A stretch of DNA of 64,000 nucleotides from GCA_000165345.1 CM000432.1:768001-832000, one strand, 5' to 3'; shown: positions 49,710-56,300, counted from the stretch's first letter. Notes: generated by a model from the sequence alone, not told the origin. Made by a program: numbers and translations.

Positions 49710-52097
49710 TTATGACTTCTTTTTTCTTTGTAACTTTAATACTTTCTTAAGTCTCTTATAATTCTTTTTAAAAGAATTCTTTTCAATGACCATCATTGGA
49801 ACGATCATCATTTGAATATTATTATTAAGTATCTTAGTTCTTAAGCTATTTAGCCACTCATTAATTATATCCATATCTTTTGGAGAATTAATATTATTAA
49901 TAGTGACCAGCCTTTTTTGACCTTGTTTTCTTTGCTTTTTATTTGTAGTAAATCCTAATAATTCACTTTCCTTTAATAATAAATCATTTTGATCAACAGT
50001 TTCCGTACCACCATTTTTCTTTAAACAAACTAAAGTAATTCTGACTGACTTAATTTTCTTTAAATCCATCAATAGGCGATTACAATCACTTACTCTGGTT
50101 AAGAAACCAAAAGGAAAGGCTTGTTGTAATATAATTACAGGTGAAGAATTATTAAATGTTCTTTGAAAACGATATTTCAAAGCATCAAAGGATCTTGCAT
50201 AATTATAAATAATTGAAAGATTATATTTATATAATCTGGATCCATACCAAATACTCTTTAATATACGATATCCATTCAAAGTAAAAATTGGTTGATCCCA
50301 TCTCTCAATCATATGGCCAAATAACTGATCACTATTTTTTTTTTCACATCCATATTTTTCATTTCCTATAGAAACAGGAAATAGGATAAATTTTGAAACA
50401 TTAGTGATTGGAGACGACTTTAACATTGCAATTGCTACTCTATTTATTACATTTGCAACTGAATAATTTGGAACATTACCCACAATACATGTAGATATTC
50501 TTTGTTTGTGTTTTAAAATCTTAAATATTCCAGAAACTAAACACACCCAAAGATTCTTCAAAACGGATAAATACACATGAATAGTATCAACATATACTAG
50601 ATTAAATCTTGCATCTTTTTGATATTGTGATTTTTTCATTTTTTTAAAAATCTTTTTAAAGTTTTTATACTTGTACTGTTTTTTTTGTGAAACTTGACCT
50701 TTAATCATTTCTTCAATAGCAGCATCATCCATAGGCAAGTTAATGGAAGAAACAGGAGATTTCTGATATCCAATAAATAATACTCTCTTACCTCTAGTAA
50801 GTTTAAATCTTTTAACTTTCTTAATATTTTTATTTACAGATTTAGTTAAGATTTGAAAATCTTGCTCAGTTGGTAAATAACTTCCCATAGCTGTGAATGG
50901 TATTGAATTAAACTTTTGTTGTATTGTATTAGTTTCTTTTTTAATTCTGCGTGGTAGTTTTTCATAATATCTGGAAGTGGATGCATATTTCGAATAAATA
51001 ACATAATTCATATAACACAACTCAAGAACTTTATTCATGCTATCAATATATAGAACAACATCCTTAACTTTGTGGTCATATCTTTTCCATTGGCGTTTTG
51101 AAAAGAATTCACTCATTGTTAAAAGTTGATATCTCTCTAATTTGGATTGATCATTTTCATCCACTTTTAATCCATGTTTCTTATTTTCTAAATCTAACTT
51201 TTTAAACCTTCTTAATAATTTCCGTCTCTTTTGCTTACTCAACTTATTCAAACTTTTGTTCTTGGATTTTTTAATAAAAATATCATATTTATTTTCTGGA
51301 CAATCTTCTTCTGATTTGCCAGTCACCATTAAATAAAGTCCATTTGGTGAAACGGTTGCTGCTGGTCTTTCTCTTATTTGAAGAAATGTATTTCTTTCTC
51401 TGACGGGTATTTTTTCGATAGAATCAAAATGAACCAAGGATCTTGGAACATAGTTCATTACATCAGCTGCCATATTTTTTTGATCCTGGTCGAATTTTGG
51501 CATTTTCTTATGATATTCATACCTCAAAGCTTCTTCTTTTTTGGTAACTACTGGGGCATTCAATTGATCATAACTTCCTTTATCATATACAATATTTTTG
51601 TCTTTAACTAAAACACTAATTGGTGTCTTTGAATAGTTTTCGTATTCATGCGACATCAATTCTTTAGGAGACTCCTCATAATATGTAAAACCGTCCCCAT
51701 TATAGTTTTCCTCTGGTTTATTTGAATTTTCATTACTTTGATCAGAACTCTCAGTTGAAATAGATGGCTTATTTCTTTTTTTTTCATCTTCACGATCTTT
51801 AGGAATTGAAGATCCTTGGTCCTGTAAAGCGTTTTCTGCTTCAACTGATGAAAGTTCAGAGTCATCATCAGAACTCATATCGGCGTATTCCACAAAGTTT
51901 CTTCTACTTCCTGGACTAACTTGGTTATTCTCTGTTTGAGCACCTATACCATTTTCCGATCCTTGCAACTCTTTGTTATTTTCCATTTGTAAACTATTAC
52001 TAGACGATTCTACCCATCCTATAATTAATATTATACTAAATAATATTAATATCAATCTTGAATTCATTATATCTTTATTTAGACTTTCTTTCCTCAT
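49710..52097 (-). CDS. Secreted 795-aa protein, a paralogue of the C-terminal domain of the adjacent 2929-aa protein.
   Basis: The signal peptide is MNSRLILILFSIILIIGWVESSS. It has an acidic Ser/Asp/Glu/Asn-rich N-terminal region and a basic KR-rich middle. Its C-terminal ~350 aa (TCIVGNVPNYSVANVINRVAIAMLKSSP...KFILFPVSIGNEKYG...SSPVIILQQAFP...IVPMMVIEKN) is co-linear with the 2929-aa protein's C-terminus. Confidence 0.65.
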   Translation of the reverse strand: MRKESLNKDIMNSRLILILFSIILIIGWVESSSNSLQMENNKELQGSENGIGAQTENNQVSPGSRRNFVEYADMSSDDDSELSSVEAENALQDQGSSIPKDREDEKKRNKPSISTESSDQSNENSNKPEENYNGDGFTYYEESPKELMSHEYENYSKTPISVLVKDKNIVYDKGSYDQLNAPVVTKKEEALRYEYHKKMPKFDQDQKNMAADVMNYVPRSLVHFDSIEKIPVRERNTFLQIRERPAATVSPNGLYLMVTGKSEEDCPENKYDIFIKKSKNKSLNKLSKQKRRKLLRRFKKLDLENKKHGLKVDENDQSKLERYQLLTMSEFFSKRQWKRYDHKVKDVVLYIDSMNKVLELCYMNYVIYSKYASTSRYYEKLPRRIKKETNTIQQKFNSIPFTAMGSYLPTEQDFQILTKSVNKNIKKVKRFKLTRGKRVLFIGYQKSPVSSINLPMDDAAIEEMIKGQVSQKKQYKYKNFKKIFKKMKKSQYQKDARFNLVYVDTIHVYLSVLKNLWVCLVSGIFKILKHKQRISTCIVGNVPNYSVANVINRVAIAMLKSSPITNVSKFILFPVSIGNEKYGCEKKNSDQLFGHMIERWDQPIFTLNGYRILKSIWYGSRLYKYNLSIIYNYARSFDALKYRFQRTFNNSSPVIILQQAFPFGFLTRVSDCNRLLMDLKKIKSVRITLVCLKKNGGTETVDQNDLLLKESELLGFTTNKKQRKQGQKRLVTINNINSPKDMDIINEWLNSLRTKILNNNIQMMIVPMMVIEKNSFKKNYKRLKKVLKLQRKKKS

Positions 52098-53304: not shown

Positions 53305-56300
53305 TTAAATATTATTAGAGTGCTTAATATTCTTTTTTAAAGCCTTATCCATGGCTTTTCTGTCAGATTTGCTAGTCTTTAAGTTATTGTCAACAAATAT
53401 TGGAAGGATAATCATAGGGACAACAGATGGTTGTCTAGATGCTCTAGCTATTGCATCAAGTAGGAATTTTCTGGTTTGGAGAGAGTTAACACCTTTAATT
53501 TCTAAGACTGGCCCTTCATATTTTCGAGACTTGAAATTTTTAAAACTGTAAGGGTTGGTAAAGAAAGTTTGGATTCTCTTAATTTGTTCATTCAAAAATG
53601 ATTTAGCATTTGCACCAGAATTAACCGTACTATCGTTAATTAGTAGAATAAATCCTGGCTTAAGTTTGTTTCTATATGACCTATTTTTTAAAGATGGTTT
53701 ATATTTGTTTTGAATTTTTTTAACAAGTTTTTGAGCTCTTGAGTAACCTTTAATGTACAACTGAGGGAATGACATAGGGATTACAATAGACCTTGGACCA
53801 TTTGCTTTAAGGGATCTAATATCCAGCTCTCTAGAATTCATTAAATAAAGTTTGAAAATAGCTTCACTTAAATTAGATAATTTATTATTATATCTTTCCT
53901 TGACTTGTTTAGAATTCTCGAATTTCATTTCGAACTGGAGTTTGCTAAATTCTAAGTCAGAAACTGCTGGCGAAATAGCATCTTCTGGTATTTGAATATC
54001 AAAATTCTTATCAACATTTCCAGATTCTGAGAGTTTAAGCTGCTCATTTAAGTTCTCTTTTCCTATTCTTAATGGAATGATTAAGAATTTTGCTAGAGAT
54101 AAGTCTGGGCTCATCTCCAAATATTTTAATGCTACCCTATAGATCTTCTGAGCTGCAAAATGACTTCTAACTCCACCAACAATACAAGTTCCTAACTTTG
54201 TCCTTTTTGATTTGCTTGTAACTGTATTATTTAGCTGAAGAGCTCCCTTTATACATAGAGCTAAGTCGATTAATGGAATAATAAGCATTCCCTTATTATA
54301 TTCTACATTCATGGAATACTCTACAGAAGAAAGAGCATTCTTTTTACCAGAGAAATCGCCCATACTTGCAAAACTATTTGGTAATTTCTTCTCTGTGAAA
54401 GATCTGGTTGAAAATGCCAAAATAACTACTCTTCTTGGAGAATGAGACTTTTGTTTTTTAACTGCTTGATGCAATACCATCCTTTGGAATAAGTTTAATC
54501 CTCCCAAATTTGGAATATAACTTTGAGGGGAAACCAATGGAAGTGCAACCCAACGATGTTTGTCCATTGCTTTGTTCCAACCTTTCAAATCTGAGAACTT
54601 ATCAATATACAACTTAGCAACCTCACCTGGAAAACTAATTTGTTTTAAGAACGATTTGGCATATATATTCTTAATCTTGGAGACTCTTTTTGAAAATCTT
54701 CTTACATCTAAAGGACGCCTTCTTGATTCTGAAGTATCCCCAGAAATTTTCTCGCATCCCAACTCTTTCATCTTTAATTGATCTGCCATATCTTTACATT
54801 CCTCAAACATTTGTGAGGAAATAGAAACAGGAATAGCTTCAATACTCTCATTTTCTAAGCTCTGTACAAAATTATCAGAGTATAGCTTTTTATCATAACT
54901 ACTTAATGAAGGATCCAGATAACCAAAGTTTGTAATTTCTTTACTCGTTGGGGCTTGATTTTGTATCTCCTTTAATTTTTCCAAGGTTTCCACAGGCTTT
55001 GGAATATTACTTCTATCCATCATTGGATTTTCGATTACTATATTATTCAGTTTATTTATCACTGAATCATCATCGTCAGAAACTTCTCTCAAAATTAATT
55101 TTTTTGAAATTTCCATTCTTGGGTCTGTAACTAATGTTGAAAGAATTTCTTCTCTGGTTGCTTCTCTCTCTACTTTAAATACATCAGAATCATCCTGTAA
55201 ACCTTCAGGCCCAATATTTAAATTATCATTGGTTTCTGCTCCATTCTTAGCCTTTACTTTATTAGAAAGTATATCTTTTGCTGCACATTGGCCCATATCA
55301 TAAAGCTCTTCTTCAGAGTACTCAGGCTTTTGAACTAACATAAATTCTTCACTACTCTCTGGAAGATCATCATCGACAAATGACTTCATCATTACAGACT
55401 TTGATGAATTCTCTTTACCTGTACCATTTTCATCATCAAGCGGAACAGAAACCTCATGCTCTTCATCCAGATAGTTACCAAGCTTACGCTTTCTATCCAA
55501 GATTTGCTTCCTCCTTCTATTAGTTGGGGTGTCCAACCCTTCATATACAGATCTTCCTGTTATTTCTGGTTCATAATTCCAATATTGATAATCTGGAATA
55601 CTTGGCATTCCAAATGCTTTTCTTCTATTATTCACAAAATCTCTCAAGTCTCTATTATATTGAGACATTTCTGGAGCTTTGTAATATCTAGGAGTAGGAA
55701 TAACAAAATTTCTAAACATTGGATGATCTATTTGTGTTTTAGAGTACTGATCTTCGAATGGAGAAGGAAGTCTGGAGGCCGCTTGCGAACTTCTATAAGT
55801 ATCTGGAAGAGTATGATCTCTTCTAAATGGAAGTCTTTTAATTGGATCAATAGCATTGCCTCTTCTACCATCTTTTAATTGGTAGTATTCTCTCGGAATA
55901 AATGTTGAGAAATCATCAAACTCAGAAAATTCATCACCAATTATATCTCCACTCTCTGAGTAATCTGATTCGTAATCATCTAAGTAAGGGCTCATCACCA
56001 TTTTCCTTTGACGGTTTCTCTTCAATGGCTTCCTACTTTGAGGATTAATTGCATCCAAACTACCATTAAAAAGATTATTCTGTTTTGGAATACCCAATTC
56101 ATCATATATTTCTGATAAAGCATCCCTGCAGCCTTGAGGGCCCTGGTTCATCAAATATGTAACCTTCGAAAGGCTTTCTGGTAAAAGGTTCAATCCTGAA
56201 TAAGATTTATTTGGTCTATAGACTCCTTGATCATTATCTTCCAAATCTTTATCTAAATCAGTGCTTTTCAAGAAGTACTCTAAGGCTTGAGGGGCCTTAT

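Follow-up and report, generated by a model that had tools for sequence, protein, structure and literature searches.

A conserved C-terminal domain shared by two adjacent, putatively secreted proteins of Cryptosporidium parvum

Chromosome 4 of Cryptosporidium parvum, a diarrhoeal parasite, carries two neighbouring genes that encode proteins of 795 and 2929 residues (aa), labelled A and B in this report, and a C-terminal domain was found to be shared by both. The genes lie in a stretch of 64,000 nucleotides, CM000432.1:768001-832000 of the assembly GCA_000165345.1, which is referred to as the window and from whose first letter all positions are counted; its G+C content is about 32%. As had been noticed in a preliminary description of the window, the two genes are adjacent on one strand, both being on the minus strand and 1207 bp apart. 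The source name for A is 'putative signal peptide-containing protein'; variants of 785 aa are also recorded, and the start is placed at Met11 in some annotations. The source title of B is 'Large low complexity protein with signal peptide, within large locus of signal peptide ...'. The genes and their features are as follows.

49710..52097, minus strand: gene A, open reading frame (ORF) of 795 aa, exact-sequence match to C. parvum Iowa II EAK87782.1 / XP_625920.1
52005..52097, minus strand: predicted signal peptide of A (MRKESLNKDIMNSRLILILFSIILIIGWVES), from its hydrophobic N-terminus and the source names
49782..51038, minus strand: shared domain in A, residues 354-772, 419 aa, delimited by hhalign and a tail test, coordinates checked by translation
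50487..50543, minus strand: invariant cysteines of A, C519 (50541-50543) and C537 (50487-50489), spanning ...LWVC... to STCIVG, codons verified
52098..53304, no strand: spacer between A and B, 1207 bp, 23% G+C, containing the presumed promoter of A
53305..62094, minus strand: gene B, ORF of 2929 aa, exact-sequence match to EAK87781.1
62011..62094, minus strand: predicted signal peptide of B (MNTAIGRFYSQLSLLLIILSPFSKIAEC), from its hydrophobic N-terminus and the source names
56065-56910, minus strand: five tandem helical repeats in B of about 45 aa each, residues 1729-2010
53386..54675, minus strand: shared domain in B, residues 2474-2903, 430 aa, delimited by profiles, coordinates checked by translation
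54184..54255, minus strand: invariant cysteines of B, C2614 (54253-54255) and C2637 (54184-54186), codons verified

The preliminary description had proposed that A and B are co-linear over their last ~350 residues and had quoted four pairs of matching blocks. In a BLASTP comparison with composition-based statistics, A393-580 was aligned with B2512-2680 (expectation value E=2e-9, 22% identity), and the first two pairs of blocks fall inside this stretch. The Smith-Waterman score of the C-termini was 125, compared with 46+/-8 in 300 residue shuffles (z=10); the final ~215 residues alone gave no significant pairwise score (z=0.5). When profiles of five orthologues per family were compared by hhalign, the match covered A375-678 and B2494-2793, with the third pair of blocks included (E=2.9e-8), and once the families had been enlarged to nine sequences for A and five for B it covered 297 columns, A354-679 and B2474-2794, at E=3.7e-10. 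Column-shuffled controls, which keep composition, were run for the five-sequence profiles (n=10), and the best of them reached only E=0.055, compared with an observed E of 6.5e-10. The tail that carries the fourth pair of blocks, A725-772 and B2858-2903, was found to be co-linear at the profile level (E=0.005, score 22.0), a score that none of 100 column shuffles reached (mean 11.5+/-2.0, maximum 17.9). Homology of the C-termini of A and B is thus confirmed, and it runs co-linearly through about 420-430 residues (A354-772, B2474-2903); the identity between the A and B families is 17-21%. All four pairs of blocks align in the order first given, the fourth more weakly, and the alignment withstood the shuffling controls that had been suggested for it; the shared region is longer than the ~350 aa originally estimated.

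The N-terminal parts showed no similarity to each other (E=0.31, within the shuffled range), in agreement with the complete divergence that had been described. Because the shared region is about 420-430 rather than ~350 aa long, these parts measure 353 aa in A and 2473 aa in B, not 445 and ~2570 aa. A resemblance between RYEYHKKMP and PRYYKAPEM, noticed by eye in the N-terminal parts, was no better than shuffles and is unsupported. An internal duplication of the domain, its first beta-alpha-beta lobe against its last, was also considered and rejected (E=0.15, matched by 5 of 40 controls). Furthermore, the neighbouring gene for a 2128-aa protein did not qualify as a third family member (hhalign E=0.5), and no further copy of the domain was found elsewhere in the window by tblastn.

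In an alignment of 14 sequences from both families (A6), 33 columns were invariant. They include two cysteines, a GSY-x-P / QSY-x-P motif, R-V in the first strand, [IV]G-x-E, F-P and N-S; B as a whole holds only 7 cysteines in its 2929 residues. The shared domain was the best-conserved part of B across the genus, with a mean identity of 0.60-0.69 compared with 0.21-0.58 elsewhere. Between C. parvum and C. meleagridis, the ratio of nonsynonymous to synonymous substitution rates (dN/dS) was 0.089 in the domain of A and 0.084 in that of B, versus 0.12-0.33 in the other segments. No other part of either gene is as strongly constrained as the domain. Moreover, its net charge ranged from +25 to +45 over the 14 sequences (+43 in A, +38 in B), whereas the N-terminal parts have net charges of -1 (A) and -73 (B). 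The domain is strongly basic because aspartate and glutamate are depleted, acidic residues making up 7% of it and 17-20% of the N-terminal parts. In A, the shared domain is followed by a basic C-terminal helix up to residue 795.

The domain was then modelled with AlphaFold2 (AF2). The models of A and B had a mean predicted local distance difference test score (pLDDT) of 57.1 and 57.7 and a predicted template modelling score of 0.44, with better stretches at 70-89. Both presented the same order of elements, namely a long helix, a strand, a small sheet, helix-strand repeats and a basic C-terminal helix, and nine or ten strands alternated with helices in an order common to A and B. The two models are of low confidence and rest on overlapping alignments; since the alignment is shared, their agreement is not independent evidence. 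The alternation of strands and helices in both models, at a pLDDT of 57-58, may point to a Rossmann-like three-layer alpha/beta sandwich, and the domain is an orphan module with a probable three-layer alpha/beta fold, as far as such models can indicate. The compact alpha/beta module suggested in the preliminary description, where the domain could not be placed in a known fold, fits these results. Full-length A and B had no match to Pfam-A below E=0.04, and a Pfam scan of the 14 domain sequences (E<=10) gave scattered sub-threshold matches only, of which the strongest had E=0.011 and occurred in 2 of the 14. The A6 profile found no match among the chains in the PDB (best E=0.31), the full-length A and B family profiles gave nothing in the PDB at E<=1, and a Foldseek search of the models against the PDB gave nothing at E<=0.001. 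In addition, the Walker A motif GxxxxGK[ST], expected of a P-loop nucleoside triphosphatase or kinase fold, was absent from A and B in a regular-expression search.

To clarify the distribution of the domain, a two-domain hidden Markov model (HMM) was searched against 1.84 billion representative proteins. Four hits were obtained, all with E<1e-100, of which one was A-type and three were B-type. The three hits with a source name were all from Cryptosporidium (C. ryanae, C. muris and C. andersoni), and the two Logan-only representatives in the HMM search closely matched A and B. Beyond the orthologue groups of A and B, the profile search of these 1.84e9 proteins recovered nothing, further paralogues included. 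Relatives of the A family were present in chipmunk genotype I, C. ubiquitum, C. canis, C. felis, C. xiaoi, C. ryanae, C. andersoni and two further assemblies; the alignment query with the B family recovered only a C. hominis fragment, and a scan of Joint Genome Institute (JGI) metagenomes yielded no relatives of the domain. The domain was thus found only in Cryptosporidium, with two copies per genome, so that the lineage-specific multigene family envisaged earlier holds as to lineage and is limited to two members per genome as to size.

In C. muris, B (2674 aa) is followed by A (824 aa), by an oppositely oriented 1954-aa gene and then by Vps53. In C. ryanae and C. meleagridis, B, A and a gene for a protein of about 2000 aa were arranged as in C. 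muris; the 2128-aa gene of C. parvum is syntenic in all three species. Since the B-A order is conserved and includes C. muris, the duplication is judged to be older than the sampled radiation of the genus and than the split between gastric and intestinal species. Together with the significant co-linear similarity and the adjacency on one strand, this order bears out the tandem duplication that had been proposed, and, judged from these comparisons, A and B are ancient tandem paralogues of which exactly two members have been retained since the duplication. The size gap between the N-terminal parts may reflect expansion of B, loss in A, or a partial 3' duplication or fusion.

The N-terminal part of A holds a conserved region of 230 aa. 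That of B, about 2470 aa, combines low-complexity tracts, some acidic and some basic, with conserved blocks and the five helical repeats, whose consensus is L..L.P..I....LL..K.NG...AL..LLD.L.I. The C. hominis orthologue of B is titled 'UBA domain-containing protein' in UniRef; however, the Pfam UBA model matched neither any single repeat of B nor the whole repeat region at E<=10. At residues ~370-520 of B (~60535-60985, minus strand), dense arginine/lysine clusters were observed, for example KRHSKRRPKKPKLPKK, GRRRRGRRQRED, PRRRKRRD and RNRRRRRG, which sit after a long acidic tract rich in D, E and S and resemble nuclear-localisation or convertase-site motifs. From the hydrophobic N-termini and the source annotations, both proteins are predicted to enter the secretory pathway, and the most hydrophobic 19-mer of A (Kyte-Doolittle hydropathy, KD, 2.17) coincides with the region of its predicted signal peptide.

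The following neighbouring genes were identified in the window.

26555-30541, plus strand: ORF with BEACH and PH_FAN domains, TTG start
30953-33253, minus strand: AMP-binding acyl-CoA synthetase ORF, 766 aa (cgd4_3400)
39429-42299, minus strand: Vps53 gene, ORF of 956 aa, from an exact protein look-up
43153-49539, plus strand: 2128-aa signal-peptide protein (putative cgd4_3430), convergent with A
63237-64000, plus strand: ORF with a signal-peptide-like N-terminus (MMLRYGSFLILVNLLTLMLLQG...), divergent from B and running past the window end

The 766-aa ORF and a 906-aa ORF with RRM and WW domains served as anchors for the gene numbering, being cgd4_3400 and cgd4_3410, respectively, in agreement with the published names. 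By counting on from these anchors, we infer that Vps53 is cgd4_3420 and the 2128-aa ORF cgd4_3430, and the same numbering of neighbours would make A cgd4_3440 and B cgd4_3450. The orthologue of B in C. meleagridis is cmbei_4003450, and cmbei identifiers parallel the C. parvum numbers. The published DG8 partner cgd4_3530 was also considered as the identity of A or B and was ruled out, as its 175 kDa fits neither. Concerning the other ORFs, the listed start of the BEACH/PH_FAN ORF is probably truncated because it is a TTG, and the ORF is likely a piece of a longer gene. The 2128-aa protein has a long central K/E-rich region of coiled-coil-like appearance, and since the protein collection lacks this exact ORF, its annotated gene model might be a different one; cgd4_3430 appears in a 3-6 h secretome list. 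The ORF at 63237-64000 probably belongs to the 'locus of signal peptide proteins' as its next gene.

Upstream sequences were also inspected. The palindrome GCATGC, which we take to resemble a known apicomplexan AP2-type upstream motif, occurred 17 times in the window compared with 5.6 expected, and none of 100 shuffles reached 17. Two copies lie upstream of A within the A-B spacer (52694 and 53049) and another, in the form TGCATGCA, in the stretch that separates B from the next gene (62708), each about 600-960 bp from start codons. The upstream regions of A and B had only AT-rich words and this general motif in common.

Published proteomic data were found to include both genes. When anti-DG8 was compared with pre-immune serum in immunoprecipitations from HCT-8 cells at 3 h post infection (PMC13241007, S1 Table), cgd4_3450 was recovered with 21 peptides and 37 peptide-spectrum matches (PSMs) at a log2 fold change of 2.94 (p=0.026), within the authors' filter of >2-fold, p<0.05 and >30 PSMs, which 18 proteins are said to pass, and cgd4_3440 with 7 peptides at a log2 fold change of 4.07 (p=0.017). 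SG4, DG3, DG5, CP2 and SG3 were enriched as well (PMC13241007). Through the gene numbers deduced above, this pull-down shows that A and B are produced in early infection, and it is suggestive of an association of both with the interface complex. A and B are also both on a published antigen array, whose authors favoured proteins annotated with a signal peptide or transmembrane segment. No paper whose main text discusses cgd4_3440 or cgd4_3450 was found in the literature searched.

Based on these observations, the explanation that we favour, with limited confidence, is that the domain may be a non-catalytic docking module for a common anionic partner, through which both proteins would be joined in one compartment or complex; we regard this as a possible rather than a probable function. 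The shared domain would be a folded module in which the invariant cysteine pair probably forms a stabilising disulfide, and it would act in docking or assembly but not in catalysis. Its polycationic surface could bind an anionic partner common to A and B. The candidates are membrane lipids of acidic character and secreted proteins that are acidic, among them B itself with its long acidic tracts. Such binding would bring A and B to the same secretory compartment, and both might then join the multi-protein layer that dense- and small-granule proteins (DG8, SG4) form at the host-parasite interface, with the unrelated N-terminal parts providing protein-specific functions.

Several points weigh against this proposal. 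The assignment of the fold is soft, as the models have a pLDDT of 57-58. The AT-rich genome accounts in part for the lysine richness of the domain, and the specific trait is its depletion of acidic residues. The cgd4 identifiers of A and B were deduced by counting neighbours. A and B were both missing from the more stringent GFP-DG8-C pull-down, and the anti-DG8 list is long and includes ribosomal and cytosolic proteins, which makes it weak as a sign of specific interaction (PMC13241007). No epitope tagging of A or B was encountered in the literature searched. Finally, invariant polar residues stand at the C-terminal ends of predicted strands ([IV]G-x-E, E598, F-P and N-S), and since alpha/beta enzymes put their active sites at such ends, the domain could have a catalytic or ligand-binding role.

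This last point leads to an alternative that we consider unlikely but worth weighing, namely that the domain is an unrecognisably diverged Rossmann-like alpha/beta enzyme or small-ligand binder and that A and B are paralogous secreted enzymes with different N-terminal appendages. The clustering of G578/E580, E598, F661-P662 and N737-S738 after predicted strands, the equal invariance of R643 and R753 and the very strong purifying selection would all suit this alternative; however, the domain has no Walker A motif and no invariant histidine or aspartate, and it gave no sequence signal in Pfam or the PDB even at E<=10. It is also conceivable, though we think it quite unlikely, that the domain serves for sorting or packaging inside the parasite only. 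It would then condense with acidic cargo and so load A and B into dense-core secretory granules, would play no part once they are secreted and might even be cleaved off. A conserved polycationic domain beside long acidic tracts, the predicted passage of both proteins through the secretory pathway and their co-enrichment with proteins of several secretory organelles are consistent with this, but so strong a constraint over 420 residues exceeds what a simple aggregation signal usually needs.

A further alternative concerns the top hydrophobic internal 19-mer, which is homologous in the two proteins (A510-528, 50514-50570, KD 1.67; B2603-2621, 54232-54288, KD 1.89) and surrounds the first conserved cysteine. 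Were this segment to cross the membrane as a helix, both A and B would be membrane proteins, with the putative domain extending to either side of the membrane. The two values are just over the classical threshold of 1.6, and the C. meleagridis orthologue of A is titled 'Integral membrane protein' in UniRef, a title that the hydrophobic segment probably explains. Nevertheless, the segment contains K and N in A and D and K in B, the AF2 models place a strand and a buried helix there within the alpha/beta core (pLDDT 64-84), and conservation is unbroken on both sides of it, so we hold a transmembrane helix to be improbable. Least credible, and refuted by the controls, is the idea that the similarity arose from composition alone in two proteins that are lysine-rich and AT-biased: although both are lysine-rich and the final ~215 residues fail a simple pairwise test, the BLASTP match was obtained under composition-based statistics, the C-termini scored well above residue shuffles, composition-preserving shuffled profiles never came near the observed scores, the blocks are strictly co-linear, and the 33 invariant columns over 14 sequences include 2 Cys, 6 Pro and 2 Gly.

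The proposed docking module may also be taken further, to a new Cryptosporidium-specific fold that would mediate binding of A to B, or of both to an anionic membrane, and would make them core organisers of the DG8/SG4 ring by which the parasite is held at the host-cell surface. We consider this extension a long shot; if it were true, a genus-wide module absent from the host would be essential for establishing infection and would be a defined target for intervention. A and B were already known in databases as hypothetical proteins, and what is new is their relationship and the domain, which is absent from Pfam and from the papers searched. Most secreted proteins of Cryptosporidium are annotated as 'uncharacterized'; the present finding ties together two putatively secreted proteins, one of them very large, by a defined and strongly constrained domain found in this genus only. 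It provides exact boundaries for a new domain family, a candidate for a Pfam domain of unknown function, and it offers a reason why A and B appear in the same interface pull-down. As the domain is kept from gastric to intestinal species and is absent from the host, it could be used as a marker or target for the whole genus. The finding overturns nothing known and is unsurprising in kind, but it is useful for annotation and the design of experiments.

A and B share several traits with known secreted proteins of the genus. Like the SKSR, MEDLE, FLGN, WYLE, GGC and mucin families, they are genus-restricted signal-peptide proteins with clustered genes and no homologues elsewhere, and, as with clustered secreted families, their locus was termed 'large locus of signal peptide' by the original annotators. 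Their predicted N-terminal signal peptides are also a trait of the dense- and small-granule proteins of the interface; however, DG8 and SG4 of the interface complex showed no sequence similarity to A or B in the profile search. A and B further lack the SKSR, MEDLE, FLGN, WYLE and GGC motifs, save for one chance SKSR tetrapeptide at B1388. Whereas the SKSR, MEDLE, FLGN, WYLE, GGC and mucin families are multi-copy, mostly subtelomeric, small and fast-evolving, A and B are single-copy per paralogue and chromosome-internal, and, unlike SKSR-type families, they keep their synteny throughout the genus and evolve under strong purifying selection. They thus represent another lineage-specific domain family of putatively secreted proteins in an apicomplexan, which is unusual in being two-membered, in its genus-wide synteny and in its high constraint.

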